Of a DNA stretch of 48,695 nucleotides, positions 28,584-48,695 are shown in pieces. A program made the position numbers and the translations under genes. The notes beneath the pieces are model-generated. The model had not been told where the DNA came from. It worked only from the letters and a program-made list of their open reading frames with translations, and did no database searches. Origin of the DNA: Eremomyces bilateralis CBS 781.70 (lineage: Eukaryota); NCBI GenBank assembly GCA_010015585.1, contig ML975168.1. One strand, written 5' to 3'. The number at the start of each line of letters is the position of its first letter. Position 1 is the first letter of the stretch.

Positions 28584-28854
28584 GGAAGGGGTGGAGGGAA
28601 ACGTGGAGGAGATTCGGAAAATCAAGCCGTGGGAAGAAGCAGTCTGTACGTGGCTTTAGGAAGGTTGCAGAGAGCAGACGGGTCTGGAGATCTTGTATGA
28701 ATATTTCTAGACGTGGGATCTACCAAGATCCAGAACCGACTACAGCGAGGTCGTGGAACATAATCGCTGCTTCCAAATAAGCAATTCATAAACGAAACGC
28801 CCAAACCACCCATCAACCTAACCCAAACCAATACCTCCACCCCTAAAGAAAATC

Positions 28855-31622
28855 TTATCCCTCCTCCTCCTCCCATCCCACTAACCGCCGCTCCGTCAAC
28901 CCCCTTATCCTCTCCCCCAACCCGTCCCTCCCATACCGCCCCGCAATCTTCTCCGCCGCCTCCATCATCCGCCCGCTCCGATCCCTTAGCAACCCCGCCA
29001 ACTCCAGCGCCTTCATCCCCCGCTCCTCCCCCGTCCGACACTCCACCGCCACCAGCTGCAGCACCGCCTTGTCCACTTCGTTCTCCCGCCGTCCGAGTTC
29101 CGCGCGCTGAGAGGAGGTGGCCCGTGTCGCGGAGAGCATGTCGTCGAGGAGGGAGAGGAGGATAGAGTTCTTTACGAATTGCTGCTCGAGGTGCGCGGCC
29201 TCGTCGACGTCAGGTTCTTCCTCCCCATCCGCTCCACCAGCCGTCTTCGCCTTCGGGCGGGTAGACAGTGGCACTGAAAACTCGAATTCGGAGAGCAGGG
29301 GCCGCGGGAAGTAGGGCGAGCGCTCGCCGCCTTTGAGGATGATGCAGTGGAATTTCTCGTGGGCGACGGCGACGGGCCAGTAGGTTTCGTCTTTGAGGCC
29401 GGAGGCGAGGCGGGGGAGGTGGGTGGTGTCGAGAAGGGGGGTCCAGCGGGCTTGATTGGGGAGGCGCCAGTGGAGGAGGGTGAGGAGGAGGCCATTACTG
29501 GTGTAGATACAGGGATCCTGAGATAAACGTTAGCTATGTTATGGAATTTCGATGGAAATGGAGGAGGGGGAAGTATACCCCTGAGTCGGAGAAGAATACG
29601 CTCTGCAACTTCGCGTGCTCGTCAACCGCTACAATGTCCTCCATCTGACACACCTCATCGCGCTTCACATTCTCAATCGAATATAGCAGACTACAAAACC
29701 CATCCGCGCGCGGCGGCCCGTTCCCGATCGTCATCACGTAGTTCCGCCACGCGGCGCACGTCACGGCCGGCGAGCTCTTCTGCTTGTACACGCGGAGCGG
29801 CACGCCGAACAGTGAGTAGATGCGCACATAGTGGTCGGAGGTAGTGGCGACGACGTACGCGTCGCTCAGGGCGATGGAGGTGACGTGTTCGCCAGCGGGG
29901 AGCGGGGTGCGCCAGTCGGTGCGGGCGGTCCAGGTTTCGTGGGGGCGGTAGTGGATGGTGGAGGGTTGGGTGGCGGAGGGAGGGCAGGCGAAGAGGGCGC
30001 CGTGCTCGGTGAGGCAGGCTTTGTCGTAGAGGAAGGGGTCGGTGAAGTGGAAGTCGCGGTGGAATTCACGGTCGTAGAACTCGACGGTCACAGTGTTGTG
30101 GGTTCCTTGGTCGACGGTCCAGATGAAGCCGATGAGGTTGAGGCAGAGGTAGCGGCGGTTGCCGCGCCATGATGTGCTGCCGGGTTGAAAGGCTTCGTGG
30201 TGCTGGATTTCGAAGCCGCCATATCCTCCATACCCTCCATATCGCTTTTTCGGTCGGTTGGTGTCGACGGGGTCGAGATGGCTATTTGTTCGCTTGCCAT
30301 GCCCATTCAACCCCTCGGTGTAGCCCGCGCCGTCATCGTCGTCGATGAAGCCATTCAACGAACCAACATCACTACCAAGATCCGATCCAAGATCCGATCC
30401 CATGATCTCGTCGAGCGTGTCGGGGGTGCCATCTCTGCGCCGTGGAGGTCCCGCGTTTGGCTTAGTTCCATTGATGCCATTCTGCTTCGCGCCACCTAGA
30501 GTATCATGGAGCAGTGGTGCAGGCTTGATGCCCTCTCGAAGAGCAAAGGATAGCTCACTGGGTACGAAGTTCGGGCGAATGAACAGTTCGCCTTCATTGG
30601 TGGTGTACGAAAGGATGTTCTCCCCTGGATGCCATTTGAGAGCGAGGATGGTCGCGGGGATATCGTCGTAGACATGGGCGACGGTTTGTTTCAGAGCATC
30701 CCACAAGATCAACTTGCGGTCTGCTCCTGAGGTGGCAAGGAATGCCCCATTCGGCGACCAAGCAAGTGCAGTAATATTTCCGGTATGTCCATTCGAAAAG
30801 ACTTTCTGGTTGGCCCAGTCTTCCTGGGAAACCACCTGGATATCTCGGGTACCGGTCGGTGCGGCGAATGCTCGTCCATCAGGATGCCAGAGGACGGCAG
30901 CGCTTGACTCGGAGTCCGTTTCGAAAGATTTGACCACACCATCGACCTTTTTAACCAGTTGCGGTTCCTCCGAGCTCATGGAGTATATGTAGATGATGCC
31001 GTCTGAGCAGGACACTGCAAGACATGTGCCGGACGGGTCGAACGAGACATGTTTAGAACCTTTCGATTGCTCGCGGAGGTATAATACGCGGGTCATATCT
31101 TCCGTATTGACGACTTTGACAACAAGTTCACTGCCATTGTCAGCCGGTTCTCAAGGTATGTGTGGCGGACTTACTCGCTTGCTACAGCCACCCATTGGTG
31201 ATCTGGCGACAGCGCAACATCTCGCACTGGCAACGTGCACCGTACTAAGACCTCTTCCAACGTATTCGACTGCATAGAGTACTTCGACACGGTGCCATCC
31301 TCCGATCCCGTGATAAAGAAACCATTCTGCAAACTTTGTAAGTGCGGGGTCCGATCGTATGATTCTACAGCCAACGTACCGCAGCTGCCACGGCAAAATT
31401 AGATTCCTGACAGTTATCGATGTTCGTCGGCTCGGAATCTGAGCCAGACTGGAAGATTCGAATGGCATTGTTCAGCCCGACAGTGACCAAATGCCTTCCG
31501 TTCGGCGTATAGCTCAGATATGTCGGGCCAGGCGTGTCTTGGGCTTGTTAGTGAGAGTGGTTGAATGGGAGGGAGCGATACGTACGTGCTGGACGGCCTC
31601 GTAGGCGACCTGGGTTAGCCAT
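28855..31622 (-). CDS. CTF4: Replisome/cohesion factor Ctf4 (SepB/Mcl1), WD40 plus SepB domain
   Basis: MANPGRLRGRPAH start; WD40 repeats; HEAFQPGSTSWRGNRRYLCLNLIG, VTVEFYDREFHRDFHFTD, ETYWPVAVA; C-terminal helical region. Confidence 0.94.
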
Positions 31623-31730
31623 ATTGACGAAATTTTGGGAATATCACTCTGTAATTGACGACGATGGGAGCCTTCAAACGATCCTGGAGGTCATAATCTG
31701 TTTTCAATTGTCGATTTCCGACTCATTGAC

Positions 31731-31750
31731 ACGCGACGCGAGGGACGCGT
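31731..31750. promoter_or_regulatory. Cluster of MCB-like (ACGCG) elements upstream of CTF4
   Basis: ACGCGACGCGAGGGACGCGT: three ACGCG cores including one perfect ACGCGT, ~110-130 bp before the CTF4 ATG. Confidence 0.55.
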
Positions 31751-32140
31751 TCTAGACCCCTGTCTCGTGTAACCAATTAAACGTCGTGACTCCTTACTGC
31801 CTGGACCCTTAGGCAACAAGGCCGACAATTGAACGGTGAGCAGAAAGAACCCCAGTAACACTCTCCATCGTTCCTTCCATTTCACTTCCCACCCTCCTCT
31901 CTTACCTTCACCACAACAACTTCTGCTAATAACTAAAATAAAACCTCTCACTTCCCCCACAAAACATCTCACTCACTTCAATTCCCCCACACCTTCCTCT
32001 TTACCCAGCACTCTTTCCCATCCAATCTCTCCACAACATCTCCCAACCTCTCGCCGTCCAGCTTCCATCCTCACTCATCAATCGCATTCACTCAACCCAA
32101 TTCGCACTCACCATCCACCACATCTCCAACCACAATCAAA

Positions 32141-32646
32141 ATGGGTGAAGGAAACGGCACCACTATCAATCCCGGCATGGCTGGCGTGAAGCCCAGCGAA
32201 CCTGACACCCAGGAATTTAGCGGGAAAGGAAAGGCCCCCACCGCGCAACCTGACACGAACATGATGGACGAAGACGATGATGATGATGACGATGATGAGG
32301 AGGACCAGGTATGAGCGCATTAACCGCGCAACCTCATTGTCTAAATGGCACATCACTAACCGCCTCGCAGAATGAAGAGCGTTCGTATCCCTCCACCCGA
32401 TCTCACTCCCCTCCAACCCCACCACAACAGCCCACCCACTAACCTTGCCCCCCAGCTGAAGAAGAAGAAGAAGACGATGACAACATGGAAGAAATCGACA
32501 CCAACAACATCATCAACACCGGCCGCCGCACCCGAGGCAAAGCCATCGACTTCGCCAAGGCCGCTGAGAACGCCAACGACCTCGACGACGAGGACGAGGA
32601 TGAGGATGACGATTTCCAGGCGCCAGAGGACGCGATGGAGGAGTGA
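32141..32646 (+). CDS. CHZ1: Histone H2A.Z chaperone Chz1 (3 exons including a 10-nt microexon)
   Basis: MGEGNG...GKGKAP...poly-D/E; CHZ motif MEEIDTNNIINTGRRTRGKAIDFAKAA; microexon 32371-32380 keeps the frame. Confidence 0.9.
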
Positions 32647-32844
32647 AGTGGTATGTACAGTTGTCACGTGATTGGTCGTGGAGTGGCGCTGACGTGAATC
32701 GAGCAGGTCGCGTTAGTTTCGGAGGAGTGAGGAGGGGTGGAGGGCGGTGGTTATTGTGCCCTATTTGTGCAGCAGCGTTGGCGTGGTAGGGGACGTGGTG
32801 ATGGTATCTTGGGCTTTCTCATTTCATGCTGTTGGGGGTAAGCG

Positions 32845-33410
32845 GTCGACCACAATGCCAATCCCATTCATGGCATACAGTTTAGCGGGCTGTGCCAGTC
32901 TATTACATTTAGATGATCTGGACTGCCTGCATACACCCGCAAAGGTTGTATTCCATGGCTGGAGGACGCGTGTGTGTCTTCCTCTACTTGCTGTCACGGC
33001 ACCGGGTTTATCGGGAGTGGTGGACATGTCTTGAGCTCGCTCGGCTGTTAGTGGCGGGCGGTCACATTGCTAATCCCATCCATGGCATGCAGTTTAGTGG
33101 GTGATTATGCCCGTCCGCTATATTGAGATGCTCTGGACCAGGCGCATGGATCCGTGAAGGTTGTATTCCATGGCTGGAGGAGACGTGATTGTTTCGCTAC
33201 TTTCGGCTACGGCATCGGATTTGGTATCGGACGTGGTGGAGACGTCTTGGTCTTTCTCAGCGACATGTTGTTAGTGGCAGGTGTCACATTGTCAATCCCA
33301 TTCATGGCATGCAGTTTAGTGGGTTGTGCCAGTCTACTACATTTAGATGCCCTAGACTGATTGCATTGACCTGCGAAGGTTGTATTGCCATGGCTGGAGG
33401 AGGCGCGTGG
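32845..33410. repeat. Degenerate tandem array, ~215-220 bp unit, 3 copies
   Basis: AATCCCAT(T/C)CATGGCAT(A/G)CAGTTTAG at 32860, 33072 and 33294; AAGGTTGTATT(G)CCATGGCTGGAGGA at 32942, 33157 and 33376. Confidence 0.9.
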
Positions 33411-33735
33411 CTTTGCCGAATGATCATGATAAAACGTTATGACTTCATGGGTCCTCGACATAGCATGAATCACCGAATACCTTATGATTCACTGATGACT
33501 TCCTTCTTGCAGAGGCGATCAAAGTAACCTTAAAATAGGCCTGTGGCGCATAAAGGCAGCCTTTCTGCCCGTGATCTCTGCCTTTCTAGAGTATATTAGC
33601 ACCCCCGTAGGATTATTAATCAAGTATTCTTAATCATGGGGAGGAAATACGGAAATAGTTAAATCGCTCAAAAACGGCATCTTCGCGACCAGTGCATACT
33701 TCCTAATTAGGAACTCAAATGATCCTCTTTTCTCA

Positions 33736-33760
33736 TCTGATCGTCTGATCGTCTGATCGT
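33736..33760. repeat. (TCTGATCG)x3
   Basis: Perfect 8-bp tandem repeat. Confidence 0.9.
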
Positions 33761-33984
33761 ACAGTGATGTCTTGATCCTCATCTCGCGCCACATAACCAC
33801 CTTGCTTACAGCACTCATTCTCCGCCTTCCGGAAATCCTCCGCATCCACGCCACCCAGCTATAAACTCCGTCCCTACCGTGCCGCCTGTGAAGGAAGCGG
33901 AATTGAGGATGACGATCCGACTGGCCGTCGGAGATCCTACACTACGTCAACACCGCGCGATTGATTCAAATGATGTAGACAAAC

Positions 33985-35419
33985 CTCTGCCGTAATATGC
34001 TGGTTCTCCCTCCTGTACGCATCCTGCTCCCGGAGCGCCATCGTCTCACTCCCCGTGCGAGGGTTCAATTCCTACAAGTCGAATGGAGCCTCAAACATGA
34101 TCCCCCTAAGGGTTTTCACACGGGAGACTGCCACGTAGGTCAGGCCAGGCGCGAACTCCCGCTCCGAAATGTCCAGCACAGCCCGTGCTAGAGTCATTCC
34201 CTGCGACTTATGCGTTGTGATGGCATAGGCGATGGCCAACGGGATCTGTGAACGTGAACAGGAAGTGTTTCTGATATAGAACTCGCGACGTGATGGGAGG
34301 ATTGAGACCAAAGCAAAACCGCCTACGTCCAACGTCACTCCATCATATCGATCGAATTGAACGAGGAGTATGGATGGAGGGTCCTCATAGATATCAGCAC
34401 TAGTCTACCAGCTAATATCACGCACCGTTCCTATCGCACCGTTCACCAGGCCTCGTTCGGTCTAGAGATTCTTTGCCAACATAATACGGGTTCCCAACGC
34501 CATCGGAATCTCAGAATGGAGGTTTCCTGCCTTATTAGTTGGAACTTTTTTGCCTTCACCCCTCCTTCGTGAATTGCTCGACACATCATTACAGGAGAAC
34601 GGAGATCGCGTAAACGACAGTAGTTAAACATAGCAACAGGCGCTTTTTACCGAAATACGGAGAGTGTCTCGGAACGATGCCACCTCCTCAGACGGAAGTA
34701 TGGCCTGTACTCGTGTACTAAGTTGTGTCCAGTCGTCACGAGTTGCGGAGTCTATCCGCAGGTGATCGAGAGCCTGGCGGAACTGAATCGACTCAACGTT
34801 ATTGCCCTCCTGCCGAACGACTTCATCAAGCTCGATCGTTCGCTCGAATTGGTAGTAGATATTACGCACATACTGTTCATCTAGCTTTATATGCCTCTTC
34901 TGGTTATGAAGAGCAGTTGCCAAGACTAGAGGAAGCTGGAAGAAATCGCCAGAGGAGAATACAGACACCAACGAAAGACTTGTGTACGTCAGGAAAGATC
35001 TCGTGGCAACGACGGTCAATATAGGAGAGCTGGCGAAGGCCAATCATAGATTTTTCGTCGATGATCAGATACCGTATACCCCCGAAAGTGGCCTAAGCGG
35101 CTTAAAGAGCAGTCGGCTGGATGGGATCGAGAGACTTGACATCCTGAACAGGAAGACAAAAAAGGGTATGCAGTGTCGACGCGGAGTGACTGAGCTGCGA
35201 CGCCCGTAGCCGGCCTGTACCCGCCTCGCCATCAACGTTAATCAGGAGCTGAGGCCCAGGAGTACCTGTCGCGATGACGCGTGCGAAATGCGAAGTGGGT
35301 CGTCAGATATCGCATGCTAAACAACGTAGTCGGCGATGTTTTGAAGTAAACTCCTTATCAGCCCTCCAGGACCTACAGTTCGAGCATACGCTGCCACTGG
35401 GGTCTCCAGAAGACGACAT
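33985..35419 (-). pseudogene. Degraded PIF1-family helicase of Helitron-like transposon type
   Basis: Motifs in order: LLINVDGEAGTG, YLIIDEKSMIG, GDFFQLP, ELDEVVRQ, IMLAKNL*TERGLVNG, QIPLAIAYAITTHKSQGMTL, GLTYVAVSRVK. Several in-frame stops, at least one frameshift and internal deletions. Confidence 0.88.
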
Positions 35420-36456
35420 GCCGGAGGCGTAATGAGAGTGACCAGTACTCCGTAACGGTGGTACATCAGGAATGGTGGTGGAGAGGAAATGAAGGGAATG
35501 AGAAGTCACGTGATTTATGTTCGCCAACCCCTTTTGCCCCTGTCGAGCCAATTAGAGAGCAAGAAGGAATTGATTTGACCACTTGAGTAACTCGCTATGC
35601 CCCGTGGGCCGTGATGCTCGTGATGATCATGTCTCTGAACATGGCTAATTACCCCTTCGCCTTGATTTGAACCCGGCCCAAATTCCACGCAGTGCAACTC
35701 GCCCACATCACCCCGTACGACACACCGTCGCACACGAACGAGCCTGGCCGACGGTGCTTGCCTGCTTGGTAATTTTGTACCTGTCCTGATTCGCGAATCC
35801 CAATTCCCATCTCAAGGTTGATTCCCAGGCCGAAGAAAGCCTCACTGGAGTTAACCGGTCAATATCCACTTCCACCTGGTGGAGGAAACTGTTAACATTG
35901 AAGGATATCGCTACGGTGTCGAAATGCCTTAAGCATCCATTTCTTGACCTGATAGGTACTATTAATACCAGCCCGATTAAAATGCAATGTTTGGTGATCA
36001 ACGAAAATACAAGGTACACGGCACACGACTTTCAAGGGGCCATGCTAATCTCAGGCACTCAGCACTATTCTCAGGCGCTACACGCGGCCGGAGTTTAGCT
36101 TAGTTAGCTTACTTGGCAATGTTTGATACCAACTGGCGAATCAAACGCCTGAAAACGGGTAAAAGGTGGAATCCCTTCAGTCGTGATCGGAGCGAGGTAT
36201 CCTGAATAGGGTGTTGGTATTTGGCAGAAATAACACACATAATAAAAGGCCGTCAGCCGCCTGTTCCTCCGGGCCATGAAGTCTGTCCGGATACCTACTT
36301 TCGCCAGCCTTGCACGCCAAGTCACGAGATGTTCTTTGGATTATAACTTTTATACGACCCGTCATGACTGCTTAAGGGACGAATACTGAGACCAACCAAC
36401 CGATCGCCGCTACAACCCACCGTCTATCCTATCTTGGTGCTCAATTCGAGTACACG

Positions 36457-37508
36457 ATGCCCGATCCACCGGCCCTAACTACGACCTTCACACCTCCTGC
36501 TTCCTGCTTTACAGACTGGTTCTTCAGTACCAACGATCAACAAGGCCCTTCACGATCGGCCACGGAATGCTTTCCGAGCGGATTCGGCGGATGGGAGCCA
36601 GCCCGGAACTTCTATTTCTCACCTGGAGTCTGCCCCATTTCATACGTGACGCGAAAAACCTCCCTCAAGCGTATCGGGTCCGCAACCGAAACAATTGTAG
36701 CATGCTGCCCAAGGTACCGTTTCCCATGAACTTCTCATCGTGCGCGGATGGCGGGCTGATCGTTCCCGACTGGAAAAGTGGCTATAACTATATAGATACC
36801 AACAACGACTGTTTTTCGCTCACCACACCGGGACCCGATGTTTTAGAAACAGAGACGGCCAAGGAATATCGGGGCTCCACCGTGGTTGGAACTGTCACGC
36901 GGACAATCGGTAATGGAGTGAAGCGGTATATGTGGGCTTTACCCGTACGTGTGCGATTTCAGGAGAAAGATACGTCGCTTTTCACGGCGGCGCCGACGGT
37001 GACATCGTCCTTAGACTCCGAAACCAATATCGCAACGATAACGGCTACGACAATAGGGCCGGTAGTACCAACGGTAGTATTACCGGCTGTACCAACGGTA
37101 GTATTACCGGCTGTACCAACACCAGCGGCGGGAATGCCCTCGCCCCCCGGAATCAGCGCCGGCGTGAGTGCGGGAATCGGTATTGGTGTGACGCTGGGCG
37201 TGCTGCTCTTGTGCGCAGTTGGGTTCGGTTTCTTCCGAGCGATGAGAAAGAAACGGGCTGGCGGCGTAGCGAGCAACAGAGGACTCGACATGGAGAAGCA
37301 CCACGAACCTGGTCCACCCGCGCTTTATGATCCTCATCCCCCTATCGCAGAACTGGATGCTACCGTTTACAGCGAGTTGGATGGAGGTATGATCCCGTTG
37401 GCCGAGCTGGGGAGTCCCGGTGAACAGAAGTCCGCGTCAGGAAGTCTCTTAGATCATAATGGTGGCAGTGTGAGTGGGAATTCCCCTACCACGGTCCGCG
37501 AATTTTGA
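36457..37508 (+). CDS. Uncharacterised Cys-rich ectodomain, single-pass membrane protein (2 exons)
   Basis: LTTTFTPPASC...CFPSGF...YFSPGVCPISY...ACCP|SGY (intron 36714-36778); T/P-rich stalk with a 24-bp tandem repeat; TM segment SAGIGIGVTLGVLLLCAVGFGFF followed by basic residues; AELD-type tail motifs. Confidence 0.8.
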
Positions 37509-37565
37509 TATTGGTACCCGAACATGGTTCTCAAGCTCGGCGATATCACACACTGGCCAGTAGCG

Positions 37566-37670
37566 AAGATGGAGATTTGCTACCTATTCCTGGTTATGGA
37601 AGCGAAAGGCGAAGACGATGCTCCAGGATTCAGAGCGGCTGAGTTGCGCGCTGCGTTCTCCATTGCCGGT
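37566..37670 (+). pseudogene. Possible fragment of a fungal PD-(D/E)XK nuclease-like gene
   Basis: Isolated peptide YLFLVMEAKGEDDAPGFRAAELRAAFSI resembles, from recollection, the FPFLxxEAK...PGF...Q.AF.I segment of fungal nuclease-like hypothetical proteins; no full ORF. Confidence 0.35.
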
Positions 37671-38573
37671 CCCTCAAAATCCAAGATACGTTGTGGTCCA
37701 CGAGCCGCGCCGACATCGATCCACTAGCATGGTTCTTCGCATTCCATAGAGAAGAATGGCGACGCGACGCCGGAACTCTGAATGGCGATGAGGTGGTGAG
37801 ACTGGCTCCCATGCTTCGATATTCTCACGCTGAGAAGCAAGCAGGACACAACTAGATCCGGTAGCCAAAGTCTTTCGAGCATTCGAGCGACTCCGCGGCC
37901 TGTCGGGGAAGATCTTTAGGTCCTACACGCTGAGAAATGCCAGCCTTGTACGTTGCCTCTCGCACCATCCACATGCGACGTCCGCCCAGCTGCAATGGAC
38001 CAGGCCAGAAGATAAGGGATCACCAAGTTCTCGGACGCAGCAGGAAGCCCCGATCCGTCTCGTCTTGAGAGGAATCCGCATGGCATGACGGACAATATCT
38101 GTAAAGAATCAAACTTCAAATTAGAAACTGAACCTCTGTTTTTGTTCAACGTGTGGTTTAGCTCCTTGATCGCCTCTTCCGATTATATTCGGTATGGACC
38201 AGGTGTGGGGGAATAAGGTCAACGCGTTATTATGTGGTAGTTCCATTCGTCCCTGACCAGCTTATCGACGGCAGATTGTCCGGGATGCCTGGGTTTCCGG
38301 TTCTGTGGCCATAGGTGCTTAATTGATGAGATGATGATTACTCATTCTAAAAAAATTGAACGATACGATATGTTGTGTCTATAAGTAGGTTCAGCTGTAG
38401 CAAGTACGATGGTATATACGGCTGGGTACGGTAGCTTGGCGGGGTCAAATCGGAGAAATATCGATCTGATTCTAATATCAATCTTGGAATTATATCCATC
38501 TCTCTCTCTTCACCCTATCCATCAATTCAAGATCAAAAGTCGCAAATTTTCAGAATATCACCAGTATCCCAAA

Positions 38574-39842
38574 ATGCTCATCAAAGAATCCTCCCACGAT
38601 GTGCCGACTAAAGCTGGTGGTGATATGAGTAATACCGCACCCACCCATAAGAACATCTCCATTGAATCCAGATCAAGATAACTGATGAATCCTCAAGGAA
38701 TCTTCATCTTCCATCCTACGGTACCAAATTACCCTCAAGCCAAGTTTTCAGGCGTCGTTCTCTTCAGCGAAATCTACCAAGGTACTTCCTCACCTTACCT
38801 ACGTCCCCCACCAGCCCCACCACCTTGTCCGGGCTTCTGGTTATCGTCCGTCATCCCCTAAGCCAGCATCGTATTCATCAGGTAGTGGATCATAAATATT
38901 TACCCCAAATCCAAGTAACTGGCCCCGTTGCCCGCTTCGCCCGCCAAATCGCCAGCCACGGCTTCATCGTCGCCGCCCCCTCGTCGTACCATGAATTCGT
39001 CTCCTCGGAGCCCTTGGCATATGACGTGCCAGGCACCGACAAAGGGAACGAGTTGAAGATCACGAAGGTTCGTATATCCCCACCGATCCTATCCATCCCA
39101 TCCTTCCTTACCCATTAGATTGGTTGCGTTGACCCCTAACCCGCTTATATAGGAAGTCTCCGCCTACGACGAAGACGCCACGCTCTCCATCGACCACCTC
39201 CTGTCCCTGCCGACATGCAACGGGCGGATAGGCGCCACGGGGATGTGTCTTGGCGGGCACCTGGCGTACCGCGCCGCGCTGGATCGCCGGGTCAGCGCGG
39301 CGGTGTGTTATTTCGCGACGGATTTGCACTCGCGGACGTTGGGGAAAGGGAAGTGTGATGACAGCCTGGAGAGGGTGGGGGAGATTGGAGGGGAGCTGGT
39401 TATGGTAAGCATTGATAAATTAGGCTCTTCTTTGGAGATATCCTGGTGGAAGGAGTGAGGGGTGGATGATGGGAACCCTTATTGTGGGATTGGTTCGGTC
39501 ACTGACTTGGTATAGATCTTCGGGAAAATGGATAACCACGTCCCTCCGGCGGGACGAGACCTGATCCGCAAGACGCTCACGGATGCGGGCGTCGTGTACA
39601 GCTTATACGAGGTTGCTTGGGCACAGCGTGAGTACCGCAGAGAACGAAACATTTTGGTTGAGTGGACAGTCGTCTAACAATGCATAGATGCATTCATTCG
39701 CGACGAGTTGTCAAAAGGTCGATATGATCCGGCTATTTCTAACATTTGTTTTTCCATGCTCATGGAGGTCTTCAACCGATGTCTCCGGTCTGATCTGGGC
39801 CCGCGAGAGGGCGGTGGTGGGGAGGCGATTGGCGGATGTTAG
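38574..39842 (+). CDS. Dienelactone hydrolase family protein (carboxymethylenebutenolidase-like), 6 exons
   Basis: MLIKESSHDVPTK...FSEIYQ|VTGPVARFARQIA...GMCLGGHLA (Cys nucleophile)...FGKMDNHVP...WAQH|AFIRDELSKGRYDPA...GC*. Confidence 0.92.
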
Positions 39843-39998
39843 ATATAGGGAAGGCAGATGAGAAGTAGTATGACAGCAATGCCAAACAAAGGAAATATAA
39901 TCTACTGGGTGTTTTTCCCGCCCTTTCATTCTTCCTCTCATTGATGGTAGGGCACTACAATACCCTACAAACGACTTAGTCGCCTTTGCATTCTCCCA

Positions 39999-41789
39999 TC
40001 ACATCTGCCTTCGCCGAAACACATTACTTCCTCCCTCCGACAACCCCGTACAATACCACAACGCCACCCCTAACAAGAACACAATCCCCACGCACAATCC
40101 TAGCGCGATCTTCCCCGCCAGCGTCAGTTCCCCGTTCGCTTCGAAATCGTTATCCTCCCGCTTCGTGAACCGTCGCGCTATTAGCCGCGACATCGGGTCG
40201 CCGTCAGAGTAGGTGCCCCGCGTTTGGAATCGGAGATTATTAGTTGGTGAGGCCAATTGATCGCCTGAGGAGTCGTCAGCAGGGCTGCTGGGTGGCTCGC
40301 CCGAGGAATTGGGGGGGATCGCTTCTAGGGGGGTTCCAGGAGCGTTTCCTGGCGGTATTCTGGTGGCCATTTCCTCTAATGAGGCCGCAGGTACTCCCGG
40401 TTTCACCCTCACGTTTGTCTCCCGGGACTTACCTTCTAACGTCTTCTGCGGGATGTCTTCCAGCGTCTCTGTCACGGTCACCGTGGGCTGGGTCATCGAC
40501 CTGGTCACCGTATGTCTCACGATGAAGCTCGAGAGAGACGCCATCGGGACGATACTTAGCGATGATGTTGGGTTGCTGCTTGTTGTGGATGATGTACCTG
40601 TGCTAAGAGCCTCGGAGGAGAGGGTTGGAGTAGACGGTGTTGGATTACTACTTGTGGATGACGTATCCGTGTCGTGGGTGTGGAAGGAGGAAGGTGGAGG
40701 CGATGCTGTTGCGGTTGAACGAGTAAGAGTAGGTTGGGGAGTGGATACGGTGGTTCTTGAAGTAACGGTGACAGTGACGGGGATTTTGATGACTGTTGTG
40801 GGATGGCGAGCAGGAGAGGAAGTGGATTCGTTGCGATGGACTGTAGTGGTAAGCTTGAGAGTCACGGTGGTGAAATCTCTCATTAGATCCTCTGTGGATG
40901 TAGTATGGGAAGGTTTTATTCGCGCAGTGAACCCAATCTGTGGGATTATAATGCTAGGCGGTGATACGGAATTACTCGACGCTGCTGCTAGATTCGAGGT
41001 TGTGGAAGTTGGTATAAATAACGACGGCGTGGGCTGATCCATCTTCTGTCCAGCAGATAGGCTTGCCGTTGAGGAGTTGCTAGTGGTAGTTGTCGTCGCT
41101 TTCTTCGTGTATATCGTTTTCCACACGGTTGTTGCTTCGAGAGGTTCCGGCGCACCCGTTTCGATGGCGGTGATTGTTGAAGTGCTTGTTATCGTCGTCG
41201 TCGAATCGATAGCGGGAGGCCGGCCTGCGACATGACTTGCCGTCTTCGAGCTGGTTGTCTTTAAACTGGTTGTCGTTGATCTAGTTGTCGTTGAGCTCGT
41301 TGAGCTAGTTGTCGGCACAAATATGAAACTGTAAGAAATTCGGCTCTCAGAAGAACTCATCGACGCTGAAGTGGCCATGCTCGACATCCACTGACCAAAA
41401 GCGGACGGTCTACTAGCGACATGACTGAGCGTCGCTGAATGGGAAGTGTCCGAAATCGATAGACCGAACAACGGCGAAAAGGCATCTGGAGCTATCGTCG
41501 TTGAGCTAGAAGGGCTAGGAACTGACAGGCTGAATAATGGCGTATGTCCAACTGGAGATATCGTCGCTGAACTGGCTGCGCTGGGCACCAACCTTCCCAA
41601 ACCGAACAGAATTCCAGCGACATTGCTTGCCACCGCGCAGCCCGCATCCCCCTCGAGACATGTCTTGATACCACTCGCAGGCGAATCGATCGTCCTGCTT
41701 ACGATAAGCCCGGTTGGACGCGCCGCGGCACTGAGAACGAGAACGCTGAACAGTGCCAGCACGTATGCGATTGTTCCAAGGGCGATCAT
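39999..41789 (-). CDS. Ser/Thr-rich mucin-like type I membrane protein
   Basis: Likely start MIALGTIAYVLALFSVLVLSAAA (signal peptide), long S/T-rich ectodomain, TM IALGLCVGIVFLLGVALWYC near the C-terminus; single exon. Confidence 0.8.
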   Translation of the reverse strand: MIALGTIAYVLALFSVLVLSAAARPTGLIVSRTIDSPASGIKTCLEGDAGCAVASNVAGILFGLGRLVPSAASSATISPVGHTPLFSLSVPSPSSSTTIAPDAFSPLFGLSISDTSHSATLSHVASRPSAFGQWMSSMATSASMSSSESRISYSFIFVPTTSSTSSTTTRSTTTSLKTTSSKTASHVAGRPPAIDSTTTITSTSTITAIETGAPEPLEATTVWKTIYTKKATTTTTSNSSTASLSAGQKMDQPTPSLFIPTSTTSNLAAASSNSVSPPSIIIPQIGFTARIKPSHTTSTEDLMRDFTTVTLKLTTTVHRNESTSSPARHPTTVIKIPVTVTVTSRTTVSTPQPTLTRSTATASPPPSSFHTHDTDTSSTSSNPTPSTPTLSSEALSTGTSSTTSSNPTSSLSIVPMASLSSFIVRHTVTRSMTQPTVTVTETLEDIPQKTLEGKSRETNVRVKPGVPAASLEEMATRIPPGNAPGTPLEAIPPNSSGEPPSSPADDSSGDQLASPTNNLRFQTRGTYSDGDPMSRLIARRFTKREDNDFEANGELTLAGKIALGLCVGIVFLLGVALWYCTGLSEGGSNVFRRRQM

Positions 41790-44700
41790 CCTGATGAAAG
41801 CTGTTTTTAGAGAAGCGAAAATGAGCGGAATGGAAGGTCTTTGAATTTGAGGAAACACGGACGAGGGAGCGGTCTTAATGGCGGAGTGTTGCGTTTGTAG
41901 GAGAGGTAGGTGATTACGGTGCGATGAAGAAGAAAGTCAACCCCCACGTGCGGAGCTGGGGGTGAGTGAAGTGAAGGATTGGGGGTTTAAGCAAACTTGA
42001 AGGACTGAACTTAGTTCACTTGAGTTGGAAGATATCCTATTGATATCTGGGGGCAAGTGAATGAATACGAACGTAGCTCTTAAGTCACCCAATTGAGAAA
42101 AAGGAACTGGAACTTGAATGAAAGAGACTGATTTAGTGCAACGGTGAAGATACTGGCCCGAATAAAAATTAATATGTACAATAATACCCATAGAGTAGTG
42201 GCAAAATTGTTGGTGCCAGACATGGAGTAAGCCCCTATTATGGTCATCTCGTGAATGTGTTGTTGCTCCAACTAATTTGTTAGCTTTGCGCGGAAGACCA
42301 GCGTCACTAGAGTCTTACGTTCATGGGGTTGGCAGAGTCGTAGTTTGGTATACAATCACTGTACTCCTGATCGTTGTCGTACTGATGGATTTACTCGCGG
42401 GCTCATCATACGGTTTACTTCCCATTATCAGTCATTGCACCATTAGTTTGCTTGTAAGTAAATGACTCACTCCGGCTGGTATGGTATAGTATCTTTCCAA
42501 GGAGCCGAATAGATGGAGTCCACGAGTTCGATCCGCTTGAACTTGACACTCGATGGACCGCCTGCGTCTGCGTCTTCGGTGGCAGTGTGATGGTCGTGGT
42601 TGGCTTTGGGGTCAATAGCTCCCCACGCGAGGTCAACTCCACCTCGACTTCTCGCAGCAGCTCAAGTCCTGCCGTGGGTGCAAATGTAATAACCGGCTCG
42701 CTCAGACTCCATTGAACACTCTCCACGTGGATTTCACCCGGACTGGGCAACACGACCGAGGTATTGTAGTGGCGGGTGAAGGTCTCTGTGACTGTAATTG
42801 GCCTCACTTCCCAGACTTCCCGCATCTCCAAACACGTCGCTGTACCGTTGCTGAAGATCGTACAGATCACAACCTCAACGTCTTACGGTGGTCCATCGGT
42901 GGATCATTTGCTGCCAAGGAGCAACGAAATATGTCGATAGGACTCGGACATATGGAGGATGGGTGATGGGTGATGATATCCGAGCCAAAGGTGGTCGTTG
43001 GGCCATTTTCTATCATGTAGTGGAAAACGCTGAAGAAGGTAATGCTCTGATTGCAATGGGTCACAGCCACACGGCTGGGAAGGACTGGAATCGTGGTATG
43101 ACACACCGTGGTTAGGGTCGGGCTATACGAGGTTATGCAAGTGCTTCTGCCGGATGGTATCGAATCGGAATGATTCGTATATGGAGGCCCCGTTACTGCC
43201 GGGTTAACAAACGATCCAGATATGAACGCAATGGGCGGGAGAGCGCACAGCGTGACTTGGGGTACATAGGAGATGACTTCTTAGTACTGCACAGTTATAG
43301 GTATGGCGCACCCTCCCGGCGAAGGCGTGATCTGAGTTAGAGCGGACGGGCTCATCGTCGGTGTTGAACTGGCGGTGATTGGAGAAGGAGTGCTCGGAAG
43401 CGGCGCATTATCCAAACTTAGCACGGCTGAATCTCGACGGTCTCATGGTTAAACTGTGTTGGAGGACTCTCAACCTGGGCACTCCTGGATACAAATGCCG
43501 TGAATAGGCGGAAGCCATGGGACCAATCTATAAGCCTGATGACAAAATGATTGCGAAACAACGACTCTGAAATCGACCAAACGGAGCAGCGAGGAGGCAG
43601 ACGAGCACATAAATTTCAAAGCGACAGGGAAAAGTGTATCAAATACACAGACGATCGTGGTTCGTACATTCAATGATGAGTTAGTCCGTCAACAAATATT
43701 CTCCTATCCTCATTCTCAGGAAAGGATGCAGGTACGCATCCCGCTCTTCATCTCTTGCTCCTAGGAGTCTGGACAAAGGCTATTCTTCCGACCACCCTCC
43801 AACAGCCACTAGGATTGCCGTGGGAAGAATTTAGTGAAAGGGATAATAAAGTAGAGAGGAAATTCGTGTTAGATCTATACAATTCTCAACAATGGTCAAG
43901 AGGAACCAAATGACTTTAGCAGCTTCATGGAGCAACGGGGATGATATCTCTGGGAATAGCAATTGAAGATATAAGATAGACATTATTGATGGTAGCACCG
44001 TACTGACGATACTGATTCAAGTACTCAGACTATAAACTACCGTTGACGCCGATATGAAATGCTATCTTGTCCAAACAATTGAAGCAATGAAGTCGAAAGT
44101 TTTGAAAGTCGAGAGCCATGAAGAAACCTGACAGCCTGAGGCATGTTTGATCCTTCCCCGGCCAGTCAAGGAATAGAGCTCTATGTCAGTTAAAACTTGG
44201 ACCCGATCACCCGAGTCCCGAGTCCTGAGCGCAAAGGAACGCGACAGTACGGTCCGAACCGACACTACTGGCTATATATAGTCGGCCGAGATATTAGTTA
44301 CGACTTAATTACCACTCACAACTTACGAGCGGCGACCAACTATTAGGCTGACAACGATAAACGACCGTTTTCGTCTTTTCGGTGACGCTACAGTTAAAAA
44401 AGAAATGCGAACTAGCAGTTGGGCTACTATATCCATACAGGTGAGGCGCAAATCATGTGTTTAATCATTGGTAACTAGAGAAGAACCCCGCAATGACTGG
44501 TCAATATGTGTTGGGTTAGCTGCAGTACCCCAACGTATAACTTCCCGCAGGTGTCCTAGTATTACCTAGAGAATGGTCCTAGTACTGGACCCGCCCAAGG
44601 ACATATGACGTACTAGAACTTGCCGTATTAGTTAGGACGAGTGAAGTACTAAGAGTCTAAGACGGACGAGTCCCAACTCCCAAGCCACATGTACGAGGAC

Positions 44701-45046
44701 ATATTCGCCAATGTTTAGAAGTGGGGCACTGGATGCTCGCCAGGCCAACGCCAGGGATGGAGAACTAATTACGTAGTAGTATTCCGTACTACAGTACGGA
44801 GTAACGTTATGTGCTACCGAACTTGCCTCCAAAAACGGCGGTTTCTGACGCCGTTTTCAGAGGGTTTTCCGCCTAGGCAAAAACGCTCCTGTTTCGTTAC
44901 CGGCGGTGCCCCAAAACTCCCTGCCGTTATGCCAAGGCCTCACACCCACTCACAGCGCAGGATCCTTGCTCCATGCAGTTCTCCTCAAACACGGGGGTTC
45001 AATTTTGGACTTCCAACTCTCGGTTTTCTCGACCTTCAGAACTTCC

Positions 45047-47371
45047 ATGCCTCCACGCTAATTTTGGAAGCATGATGATGTCAAACGCTATGGCTCCGCT
45101 GGGTACTATGAATCGCTCTATACAGATGACCTAACCCCAGCATTGCGCCCTATCACAGACGCGACAGAAAGAGGAGTCCGCTCTATATGGAGGAAGGGGA
45201 CAGAGTATGTAATAATGGCTAAGATTTACCAAGTTCTTAACTAACTGTCCATAACTCTGACTAGATATTGTTCGCTCCGAATCCTTAACCCCGATGCTCT
45301 TACCCGCCTGCAAAATATTAGCGTGGCCGAGATCCGACGGTTCATGCATTGGTATCTCGACAGTCATGCCGTGACGAAGCTGAGTTCCTTGTATGTGCTG
45401 ATGCGTTACTGGCGGATGATGTATGCTCGGAAGTTGTACCAACGGCTTGACCTTGTCCTCGCTTCGGATATGAAAGATGTAAGGCCGTGGTTCCCTTTCT
45501 AGAGACGCTCTCTTAGTAACGTATGAGCAGTTCATTGGCACCGTCCTCAAAGGCGAGTATAATTTGAGTGAAGGCATGAAAGACAAGCCTGTCACGAATG
45601 TGGACGATGTATACTTACTACTATATCACCACTACGCACTATCGAACGAATACTATGCGCATGAGCGCGAACGGGTTCAGCATAGTTCGATCATTCTCTT
45701 TATGATAGGCACCTCTGCCAGGCCATCAACGCTCGTTGAAGGAGGGGGCTACTACAACACGAATGAATGCCTGAAGTACAAGGATATTGAGATATTTAAG
45801 GTTAGGAATCCGGAGCTTCCCTCTCAATAAGTGTTTATTATGAGAGTCAGGCTCCGGCTTCTCAAAGGCAAAAGGGACAAGGGCCTGCCGTAAGTATTAT
45901 GTACCCCTCTTGACCTCACGTCAGCTAAGTTTACGAAAGGATTAAGGTGGTGTTTTGTGAGCGAGATGATAATCTCGCATTTTGCGCCATTCCGCAAGTT
46001 TTAAGCCTCGCCTTTGCAGATAACGCATTCGAAAGCGACTGGATCAAGCGGCCTAAGGACTTGTATACGTTTTCAGTCCCATTTCACCTGCAAAGTGTGC
46101 AGCTACATTGGAAAGAGTCAATGCAGGACATTCCGATTTTCCGACGATCTGTTGCTCGCGGCGGGGAGGTGACCATATCACCAGATAGGTCGATTCAATA
46201 TATGACTCTCTATTACCAGAATGCGCGACTTGGTAAATCTGCTGGCCTTGCGGATACTCTGGGGCTATACAGCTATCGTAGAGGCGCCGGTGAATCGATT
46301 GATTATAAGTGCACAATTTCACTTCTGTGTACATTCCCACGCCGGCAGTTCTCTTGTATCTTTTTCCTTTCTTTCTTGCCCTTATTATGGCTTCTCTCGC
46401 TGATATCATTTCCAGGCGTAGCGGGTTCAGATATGCGGAGCTTTGTCATGGGCCATGCTCGTGCAAGTCTCTTTAAGCGATATTACCGCAATAGCGTTGT
46501 CCAGTTCGACTCGGTATCCGCATTCCTCGAAGTGCCTTCTAAAGATGCGCTTATCAAACTGGCTGGGCATATGAGCTTGACCCGAGATCCCTCCGCGGCC
46601 GATTCGATAAAAGTCGAGAACTCAGCAATTGACTGCGACCCTGGTATCCAACAAATCCAAAAGTTGTGCCTTCAGCTTCGGAAAAATCTAACTAAAACTT
46701 TCGGAAAGATCAAGAACGGAACAGGGACAGAGCTCTACGAGAAGTACCAGAGCGAGCAAAGACATTTACGCAGCGAGAGGATGAGGCTGAAGCGGGAACT
46801 TGAGGAAGAAGCCAGGCGACAGTATTTTAGGATAGCGGGGACTAGGTACATTGATAAACAGCGACGCGGCATCGCTCGTGAGTATATAGAGCCTAAACCT
46901 ATATCCCAATTCGAGGAAAGGGAGAGACTGGCAGTGCTCCTCTTCCAGAACCGAGATATTAGGGAAGTGTCTAAGGAAGAGCTATATACACAACGCATAG
47001 CAGCGATAGACAACCTGATTAACCTATGCGGTCGGCATATGCCCCGCCCTGCGCCGCGTCGTCATCTCTCGTTGCGAGACAAGTCTCTAGAAGAGGTCCC
47101 TGAGGAGAAGGACATAGACACCGACCTCTTCCCCTTGGTGTGTCCGGGCACGCAATGCCTGTTCTGTCTCGGTAATTAAGGACTAGGCCCGCAGTCCAGA
47201 ACATTCGCGTTTTCTCGAAAGGATATTCTAAAGGACCACGTTAAGAAGCATCTGCGCCACCACGATTGGTCGAAAGAGCCGGAATGTCCTTACCCGCTCT
47301 GCGAGGAGGTGTTAAGCTCCGAGATGCACTTTAAGAACCACGCGGCCCGGGTTCACAACATTTTCTTTTAG
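45047..47371 (+). pseudogene. DUF3435 tyrosine recombinase (Starship captain family) with C-terminal Zn-finger-like region, inactivated
   Basis: Spliced translation gives TSARPSTLV, CLKYKDIEI, LKGKR, FCAIPQVLSLAFADNAF, IPIFRR, RLGKSAG, YSYRRGAG, VMGH, FKRYY and CLFCLGN...H...CPYPLC...HAARVH. In-frame TAA at 45059, 45828 and 47177, and a probable dead splice donor at 46305. Confidence 0.88.
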
Positions 47372-47621
47372 ATATATCACAGTCTCATCTATCCAGAGAA
47401 GGTTGGGCGAGGGCAACTGAGGAATAGTGCGTCGCATTACGTGGGGCCGATGATTAAGCAAGTTCACTGCTTAAGCTCAGGGGCTGCAGACACAACGCAA
47501 ATGATTATTGACAATTCCGATTGTCTACGTATCTTAAGACTTAGGGAACTTGACCTTGAAAAGTGCAGGGAATTACCGGGAGTTCTCAAGGTCATTTTCC
47601 TTCGAGGCTTTGCTGTACAGT

Positions 47622-48126
47622 CGTTGTTGTTGATTCATTTACCCTGACCTCTCCCGTGGGATACTCTATGCAGGCTACCACTACTCAGGTCTACCATATT
47701 CTTCCAGCTAATTTACACTGTACCGCTGCATGCACGAAGTTTTTGCCTCGTTAAGGCCTACGGTGATCACCATGTCCGCGACCCCTGATTTGAGGTCGTC
47801 CTGGAGCTCTTGCTGTGTATCTCTTAGATGCTTCCGCAAAGTCAAGTACTGCGTCTAGGACGTCGCTGTCAACTGTCCATCTCTTGGTTCTTCCTTGATC
47901 CTGAGGTCTCCCTCTAAGCATTCCGGTGATACTGTTGAAAGCGTCTCCTATCTTCTTCTGAGGCTGTTGTCTTAGCTCTCTGGGATTCGGACAGTCCACT
48001 AGGACATGTACCACCGTCTCTCTTGCTCCGCATTCGCATTAGTCATCATCTCGAAAGCCGTGGATTTTGGCATGAGATGCAAGCCACGAGTGCCCTGTTC
48101 TGAGCTGCGTTAGTAGGTATGTACGC
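47622..48126 (-). mobile_element. 5'-truncated non-LTR retrotransposon (Tad1/I-like LINE) 3' fragment
   Basis: RTYLLTQLRTGHSWLASHAKIHGFRDDD*CECGARETVVHVLVDCP...KIGDAFNSITGML is the C-terminal Zn-binding region of fungal LINE ORF2; followed by a 3' UTR ending in AATGAATCAACAACAAC (short-repeat tail). Confidence 0.8.
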
Positions 48127-48357
48127 CCTGTTCCTCTGTCGAGACTGCCAGAGCAGCAAGCAGGGGAGACGGGTTGGGAAAGGCACTATTTCTTAAACAC
48201 TCTCAATAATAGCACCAATCAGGTTTTAAAGCCTTTGGATTTCTAATCAAACATTACTCATCGGCTGTCGCCACTCGTGCTATTCATGTAGTATATAAAA
48301 GATACCATCTGTAAGGAAGGTGGGCGGGGAGGAGGTTAAATAAAGCTTAAGGAAATA

Positions 48358-48695
48358 TCACAAAGTAAGTTCCATGGTCATAACTCTTCCAGATATATAT
48401 CCGAAAGCAACAATATCCCCATACACAGCAATGCAGTGTGGCCGATACTCGGGAGGAAGCCAAAGGATCCGCTCTGTATGGCTACTCACCCAGTGGCCAT
48501 TGACAAAGATAGAGGATGGATGTTGTATACCGGTCACACCTATACCACCAGAGAGAGGTGATAAAATAGGCAAGGATCCACGGTCCGTCTGGAGAGAGGT
48601 ACCGTCATCGGAGAAAGAGAGAGCGTAGACGATGTTTCCAATATCGAGCGTCTGCTGCAGCGCGCCCGACCCGGCGTCCCACAGCTTGACCGTCC
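48358..48695 (-). CDS. C-terminus of a WD40 protein, probably a NACHT-WD40 (HET-E-like NLR); partial
   Basis: TVKLWDAGSGALQQTL...LSFSDDGTSLQTDRG...WV...ILWLPPEYRP...VAFGYISGRV is the typical tail of fungal NACHT-WD40 proteins; the NACHT domain itself lies outside the window. Confidence 0.8.
   Translation of the reverse strand, partial: TVKLWDAGSGALQQTLDIGNIVYALSFSDDGTSLQTDRGSLPILSPLSGGIGVTGIQHPSSIFVNGHWVSSHTERILWLPPEYRPHCIAVYGDIVAFGYISGRVMTMELTL

Follow-up and report, generated by a model that had tools for sequence, protein, structure and literature searches.

This report concerns a decayed gene for a DUF3435 tyrosine recombinase, and the mobile element of which it is very probably the only recognisable gene, in a 48,695-nt stretch of DNA from Eremomyces bilateralis CBS 781.70 (GCA_010015585.1, contig ML975168.1; the whole stretch is called the window below). 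The closest described systems are Cryptons, Hephaestus, and the Starships of the Tardis family. Cryptons are compact one-gene tyrosine-recombinase DNA transposons, reportedly known from work of Goodwin and colleagues in 2003 and, for CryptonF, of Kojima and Jurka in 2011. They have introns and short direct repeats and lack terminal inverted repeats. If the element in the window is compact, then it has this same architecture.

Hephaestus, which Urquhart and colleagues reportedly described in 2023, is said to be a large cargo element of the family fam02 with TTAC as its target. Its captain, HhpA, is a DUF3435 tyrosine recombinase like the one in the window, and we apply the mechanistic model for this kind of captain to our gene. 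Hephaestus belongs to a different family from our element. According to a citation in PMC11162782, HhpA is reported to be required for transposition and to suffice for it.

For Starships, we rely on the starfish survey of Gluck-Thaler and Vogan (2024; PMC11162782), and what we cite from it comes from the parts of its text and supplementary tables used here. Those parts name family 3 (fam03) “Tardis” (Table 1), and two Starships of this family, blader2_s03200 and hiscap1_s07043, are the nearest comparison, as the authors’ tables assign them to the same recombinase family as our gene (tables S7 and S9). In both of them, the captain is the first gene and points inward, and it is separated from the 5' boundary by 429 and 596 bp, as compared to about 270 bp here. 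In hiscap1_s07043, a reverse-transcriptase fragment of a long interspersed nuclear element (LINE) directly follows the captain, and a LINE relic follows it here too. These two Starships differ from our element in that they are about 50 and 82 kb long, carry cargo, and were called from insertion polymorphisms, whereas the element in the window is a dead copy, has a 5' end that is present in many copies, and has only its left boundary located. Both the distance from captain to boundary and the orientation fit the geometry of the fam03 family.

The same survey already lists our gene, as the “tyr” gene erebil1_140144 at scaffold20:286362-288293 (+) in the genome “erebil1,” and places it in fam03 along with 192051, 447870, and 475428, for a total of four annotated fam03 genes. 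For erebil1, the tables used here list 15 size-filtered recombinases and no elements. Element calling with starfish requires two genomes, and erebil1 was the sole genome of its species in the survey, which is why no elements were called. So, the original prediction, which described an unannotated Starship, was right about the element and not about its captain, which had been catalogued. The gene itself is ordinary, and as a discovery of a Starship our result is modest; what is new is a left end that is exact to the base.

The left end of the element lies at position 44794

Sequencing contigs from four runs (X1 to X4) were placed on positions 28696-48695 of the window at 80% likeness. X1 and X2 come from a single sample, X3 is presumed to be RNA, and X4 comes from a related organism, whose flanking genes diverge by 16-21% from the window. 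X3 has near-zero cover at 40.0-43.4 kb, and X4 has no cover of the recombinase coding region at 80% likeness; these gaps in cover carry no evidential weight. The features at the left end are as follows.

44251-44750 (no strand): TpA-rich flank outside the element (TpA/ApT 1.57; (CpA+TpG)/(ApC+GpT) 0.71)
44794-44812 (+): 5' terminal motif of 19 nt, GTACGGAGTAACGTTATGT, from the boundaries of the contigs of other copies; the same degenerate motif starts the homology between two metagenome copies
44794-45061 (+): 5' terminal or leader region, which includes the inverted repeat in the next line
44826-44863: inverted repeat (arms of 15 nt, spacer of 8 nt), lying 32 nt in from the left end

Long contigs that match the window with no differences run through the flank in X1 (41302-44839) and in X2 (37091-44839), and both of these end at 44839. 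(The table of exact contigs lists the longest pieces only.) In contigs from other copies, the match to the window extends only to the right, starting at 44793-44795 (five contigs in X1, 4+5 in X2, three in X3, and 2+4 in X4). To the left of this point, they have about 255 letters that are unlike the window and unlike each other (agreement 0.5). The summed depth of contigs climbs several-fold at 44794 (the tool cautions against reading depth as copy number). Wherever data are listed between 44794 and 48695, several paralogous contigs are placed. In the related organism, at least six contigs begin to match at the same left terminus (window 44793-45099), so both organisms share the element family and its exact 5' end. 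Among the X4 contigs listed, none bridges the element to give an empty site.

The copies in soil metagenomes have the same start. A scan of metagenome contigs with an alignment of recombinase proteins, of which the first is the paralogue P0002, gave 13 loci. The loci L005 and L006 are one locus (99.6% identical over 3,168 nt), and L008 is a copy of L006 that lies elsewhere and is 85-87% identical. After unlike flanks, L006 and L008 turn alike exactly at GTACG(A/G)AGTAATGGTATGT, which is the same motif as at 44794-44812 in the window. This degenerate motif is found in 3 of the 13 loci (in L005 and L006, which are one locus, and in L008) and matches once in the window, where 0.01 matches would be expected by chance. 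Because the other copies in the sequencing runs and L006 and L008 all have unlike flanks and a shared start, we conclude that the element begins at 44794. The exact 26-nt pattern of the left end had no matches in the metagenome contigs, and protein scans of genome contigs and of viral contigs gave no relatives of the recombinase.

The likeness across these copies is strongest at the very end. Over the terminal 75 nt, the window is 67-70% identical to L006 and L008, and none of 500 shuffles reaches this level. Identity drops to background (44-52%) in the 190 nt that follow and in the 75 nt outside the element. The proteins of the L006 and L008 type are just 46-48% identical to the paralogue P0002. 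The first 75 nt of the element are thus under constraint, and their conservation in spite of such divergent proteins suggests that they are likely the region that the recombinase recognizes. The recognition sequences of captains are poorly known, and a 5' end that is exact to the base and has a conserved block is a concrete candidate for one.

We also noticed that the left junction lies within a near-palindrome at 44780-44803, TATTCCGTACT / AGTACGGAGTA, whose halves are 2 nt apart; half of it is flank and half is element. Either this near-palindrome or the inverted repeat at 44826-44863 could be a site for the recombinase or could be due to chance, as there are 28 such pairs in 4.1 kb.

The original prediction put the start of the element near 44-45 kb, which agrees with a repeat boundary at 44794 and a captain-type gene that starts about 270 bp inside it and is transcribed inward. 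It had also described about 2 kb of gene-free, partly TpA-rich DNA before the gene. The second part of this holds for 44251-44750 only, which is one of just two 500-bp windows, among 193, that are positive for repeat-induced point mutation (RIP). The exact contigs of X1 and X2 run through it, and no paralogous contigs are placed on it. As for the first part, there are open reading frames (ORFs) of 155 and 137 amino acids at 42415-43280 (-), which match no family.

The recombinase gene

45062-47371 (+): DUF3435 tyrosine-recombinase pseudogene (Starship captain type, Tardis family), from Pfam, tblastn, alignment to paralogues, and the published fam03 assignment
45062-45204, 45265-45478, 45531-45889, 45940-46304, and 46416-47371 (+): exons of this gene, read from the sequence
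45828-45830 (+): in-frame TAA stop; Gln in all aligned relatives that cover the site
46305-46306 (+): splice donor of the 111-nt intron, AT instead of GT (ATAAGT); an RNA contig of a paralogue skips 46305-46415
47177-47179 (+): in-frame TAA stop before the C-terminal Cys/His motif; Gln in all aligned relatives that cover the site

Two of the eight ORF translations from 45.0-48.7 kb match the DUF3435 family of Pfam (PF11917): 45929-47179 with E = 1.6e-67 and 45483-45830 with E = 2e-09. The scores are 228.7 and 37.3 bits, above the curated cutoff of 25.8, so the profile supports what had been read from the letters alone, and the published table gives the family as fam03. In tblastn, six of six relatives are collinear over 45098-47368 and indicate a single gene with frame blocks 2/3/2. 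The introns are 60, 52, 50, and 111 nt long, and two of them (45479-45530 and 46305-46415) agree with spliced joints in X3 contigs from paralogous transcripts. Over its whole length, the translation can be aligned with the paralogues and with a Geoglossum relative.

In the protein, we see the motifs TSARP, KGKR, YSYRRG, MGH, and RYY, which are conserved in seven aligned relatives. These are candidates for the active-site positions (Arg, Lys, Tyr/His-x-x-Arg, His, and the Tyr nucleophile). A sequence search of the PDB with the recombinase gave a single irrelevant match (E = 0.87). The ORF had 56 protein matches at E ≤ 0.001 (among 4,274 candidates), and a search among longer proteins gave none in 5,079 candidates. 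Three paralogues in the same genome are 88%, 74%, and 73% identical and lie on scaffolds 3, 17, and 5.

If we reason from the family, an intact enzyme would be expected to bind the ends of the element, excise it, and insert it elsewhere through tyrosine-mediated strand exchange, with only short direct repeats left behind. Movement of the copy in the window would require the action of an intact paralogue.

This copy is decayed but transcribed

Although the gene has its full extent, this copy is dead and unable to make the enzyme: it lacks a start codon, contains two premature TAA stops, and has a defective splice donor. Exon 1 contains no in-frame ATG after the stop at 45059-45061, where the relatives start with Met-Gly, and the window copy is a few codons shorter than they are. 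At position 45828, every other DNA contig that was placed on the window has a C. The public gene model (429 amino acids) is limited to the part between the two TAA stops; its annotated protein, P152DRAFT_140144, is encoded on a contig of 398,772 bp and shares 100% identity with the 416-amino-acid ORF at 45929-47179. So, the original prediction had the rightward orientation, the extent, and the motifs (ARP, KGKR, YxxRR, MGH, and YY) of the gene right, but the gene is not intact (no ATG, two TAA stops, and an AT donor). The suggestion that the copy is derelict is supported by these same defects.

The damage is not due to a RIP sweep. Within the gene, TpA/ApT is 0.88 and the substrate index is 1.15. 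By index, the gene and its flanks are not RIP-like, and in X1 the transitions between the window and the other copies are balanced in both directions (C>T 169, G>A 152, A>G 147, and T>C 142).

With X3 as presumed RNA, the dead copy is still transcribed: X3 contains an exact 604-nt contig on 46574-47176, and both alleles at 45828 are present in it. Elsewhere, X3 shows GT..AG joints (32649>32706 and 38628>38698) that are absent from the DNA runs.

A probable dispersed mobile element

Overall, we consider it very probable that the DNA from 44794 to at least 47371 is one dead copy of a mobile element that is present in multiple dispersed copies and whose only recognisable gene is a captain-type recombinase. 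The evidence for multiple copies is that the paralogues lie on different scaffolds and that one sample contains 5-9 other left ends with unlike flanks.

Several points weigh against this. No right end, direct repeats, or empty site of the element was found in our searches. We infer that the unit is mobile because its copies have different flanks, and not from a demonstration of movement; the recognition role of the terminal block is our inference as well. The count of other copies comes from 5-9 loose-ended contigs in one sample, and the step in summed depth does not count copies. The Tardis (fam03) label is from the published table and not from a tree of our own. That X3 is RNA is the tool’s guess, and no strong RIP signature, in either the index or the transitions, lies behind the damage.

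DNA to the right of the gene

47372-47744 (no strand): repeated non-coding stretch from the stop of the gene to the LINE frame, in several contigs, with small indels at 47593, 47622, and 47662
47545-47600: imperfect palindrome of 56 nt
47745-48149 (-): LINE relic truncated at its 5' end (about 130 C-terminal residues of ORF2), from ORF2 homology, with an in-frame TAA at 48039-48041
48150-48357 (no strand): repeated non-coding spacer of unassigned origin, without ORF2 homology; 13 X1 contigs cover 48303
48358-48695 (-): 3' end of a WD40-repeat gene of the NACHT-WD40 kind, which is like a nucleotide-binding oligomerization domain-like receptor (NLR), from homology; it runs off the window

The stretch at 47372-47744 could be part of the recombinase element or the 3' untranslated region of the LINE. 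For the LINE relic, 176 of 256 candidate proteins matched at E ≤ 0.001, and many of these have RVT_1, RNase H, or endonuclease domains. All seven of the ORF2-type queries align there, by their last 114-137 residues only, to 48149-47745 on the minus strand. (Pfam gave no family for the ORF of the relic.) The tail of the WD40 gene (48358-48693 on the minus strand) is the last 111 codons plus the stop and has 8,758 matches at E ≤ 0.001. The best of these matches are to the C-termini of proteins of 1,000-1,500 amino acids, and all eight of the long homologues that we tested contain arrays of 9-14 WD40 repeats. For the tail itself, Pfam found only sub-threshold matches, and NACHT was indicated for one homologue (in an Atlas look-up, residues 150-650), which we regard as a lead only. 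Thus both the LINE fragment and the WD40 tail, which had been proposed from the letters of the window, are borne out by homology.

We looked for a right end of the element in several ways. An inverted copy of the terminal motif was absent from the window at up to three mismatches, and so was the right-end motif of L006 and L008. Local alignments of the right ends of L006 and L008 to the window were at the level of shuffled sequence (84 and 127 of 300 shuffles reach the score), and a three-way alignment of the 3' flanks showed no conserved block. When the initial 10 nt of the terminus served as a query for a further copy, there were 284 matches where 266 were expected, which is uninformative. 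Comparing 44600-48695 to itself gave just itself and the palindrome at 47545-47600, so the window contains no second copy. The window contains no unique DNA after the recombinase gene. An Rfam search of the window gave no matches, so there is no 5S rDNA or tRNA target in it.

One candidate pair of direct repeats, TACAGT (44790-44795 and 47616-47621), was rejected, as a given 6-mer has a chance of about a tenth of occurring in a 380-nt stretch. Also, two X1 contigs from other copies span 47622, with a 6-nt insertion, so TACAGT at 47616-47621 is not a junction.

Some contigs join separate parts of the window. One contig in each of X1, X2, and X3 has the joint 44882>47825, with 17 diverged letters that continue the left end, and skips the whole recombinase gene; the shorter side of the joint has 34 letters in X3 and 30 letters in X1 and X2, which is below the tool’s 31-letter rule. 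Four other joints (48101>48165, 48104>48181, 48105>48171, and 48347>48431) have a side of 30 letters and were discarded under the same rule.

How far the element extends

For the rightward extent of the element, we slightly favor a compact unit of about 3 kb over a giant Starship that carries cargo. Both readings are tentative.

A compact element would consist of the terminal block, the recombinase gene, and a short 3' flank, without cargo, and would lie next to a LINE fragment and an NLR-like gene. This tentative reading follows the metagenome copies. The homology shared by L006 and L008 forms units of 2.80 kb (L006 803-3600) and 2.92 kb (L008 380-3294) that begin with the same 5' motif. In these units, the gene is preceded by 236-320 nt and followed by 232-267 nt, after which the likeness is lost. 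The gene in L006 (1039-3368) has several in-frame stops, whereas the gene in L008 largely reads open (two of its three aligned pieces are without a stop, and the third has one stop). Neither locus has terminal inverted repeats. Ordinary genes flank L005 and L006 on both sides, with PNGase A, SDR, and TRP channel genes on one side and MARVEL and DUF3433 genes on the other. The many left ends with different flanks also fit a compact element, as does the greater summed depth of the first 100 nt as compared to the gene (with the tool’s warning about depth). Finally, starfish drops predicted elements of under 15 kb (in the parts of PMC11162782 used here), so units this small would have gone unreported.

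On the other side, the right end of a compact element was not found in the window, the match to the right-end motif of L006 and L008 is not significant (see the shuffles above), and no unique DNA follows the gene. The joint from about 44900 to 47825 hints that the LINE relic is part of the copied unit. Rapid turnover of cargo could also end the homology soon after the captain, and just two independent relatives show the compact pattern.

Among the other metagenome loci, L010 (805-1338) departs in the middle of the recombinase gene from L001 and L002, to which it is 96-97% identical, so it is a truncated or interrupted copy.

The alternative, which follows the original prediction, is that 44794 is the left end of a giant derelict Starship (at least 15 kb) that extends past the edge of the window, in which the LINE relic would be an internal passenger and the NLR-like gene would be cargo. 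We find this slightly less likely than the compact reading. A gene of captain type sits at the 5' end and is transcribed inward, an NLR-like gene follows, and about 110 kb of scaffold lies to the right of the gene (which is at 286362-288293 of the 398,772-bp contig). The longest exact contigs end at 44839, and none of the long pieces that are listed lies to the right, where the table again holds the longest pieces only. The joint from about 44900 into the LINE relic at 47825 is what would be expected of an internally deleted copy with the same layout, but in X1 and X2 it has just 30 letters on one side and falls below the tool’s rule. According to the tables of the survey used here, fam03 includes many predicted cargo-carrying Starships, such as those of about 50 and 82 kb. 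However, Starships are expected to have a low copy number (which is an expectation and not a strict definition; PMC11162782), and there are 5-9 other left ends here and six in the related organism. L006 and L008, which are 85-87% identical and share the terminus, lose all likeness 232-267 nt past the gene, and in a further family from the metagenomes (L004 and L011), it ends about 35-60 nt past the stop codon. The NLR tail and the LINE each belong to multi-copy families themselves. The 1.3 kb to the right of the gene shows none of the accessory genes that are typical of Starships: DUF3723, ferric reductase, and patatin genes, for which the original prediction advised inspecting the downstream sequence, were not seen there.

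It is very unlikely that the locus is not mobile, that is, that it is a decayed member of a host family of DUF3435 genes that grew by segmental duplication. In its favor, several paralogues are annotated as ordinary hypothetical proteins, and the family is transcribed. But the likeness starts sharply at one base, next to unlike flanks, in two organisms and in the metagenome copies; the copies are on different scaffolds; and pseudogenised copies (the window copy and L006) are frequent.

The least probable explanation is a strict Crypton (CryptonF, the compact tyrosine-recombinase DNA transposons): the single intron-bearing recombinase gene, the multiple copies, and the failure to find a terminal inverted repeat would fit, and a published passage notes that others first annotated DUF3435 repeats as Cryptons, but the recombinases of Cryptons fall outside the Starship clade in the published trees, DUF3435 recombinases are reported to form a separate clade, and the published classification places our gene inside the Starships, in fam03, with CryptonF as the outgroup (PMC11162782, in the parts used here).

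To return to the compact unit of about 3 kb: if this tentative reading is correct, then there could be a family of “mini-Starships,” self-contained and cargo-less elements of about 2.8-2.9 kb that have a Tardis-family captain, two short flanks, and the 19-nt 5' site GTACGRAGTAAYGKTATGT. Such elements might multiply like ordinary transposons, and they might be spread across distantly related soil fungi; we hold both of these ideas as tentatively as the reading itself. If the 2.8-2.9 kb unit is the whole element, then cargo-less members of the Starship family exist and multiply, and the 15-kb filter of the standard pipeline removes them from view. Estimates of the number of orphan captains that are really autonomous small transposons would then change, and Cryptons and Starships would be linked in architecture. 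A unit with one gene and two ends would also be a compact substrate for studies of how captains recognize DNA.

Other features of the window

Some other parts of the window are outside the element. A 1,555-amino-acid ORF at 14341-19008 (-) has a sub-threshold match to C1_1 only (E = 0.008). A Ser/Thr-rich ORF of 645 amino acids at 39999-41936 (-) has no meaningful Pfam match and next to no X3 contigs. The ORFs of 155 and 137 amino acids at 42415-43280 (-) adjoin each other and have no Pfam family, and the Atlas look-up gave nothing for 42415-42882. A low-depth X3 contig lies at 43459-44220. At 33365-35433, there is a different multi-copy repeat, with many variant positions and a summed depth of up to about 3,900, versus about 200-250 nearby. 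Within it, the ORF at 34072-34404 (-) has sub-threshold matches to UvrD_C_2 (E = 0.0076) and Herpes_Helicase (E = 0.007), and this repeat may be the relic of a helicase-bearing transposon.

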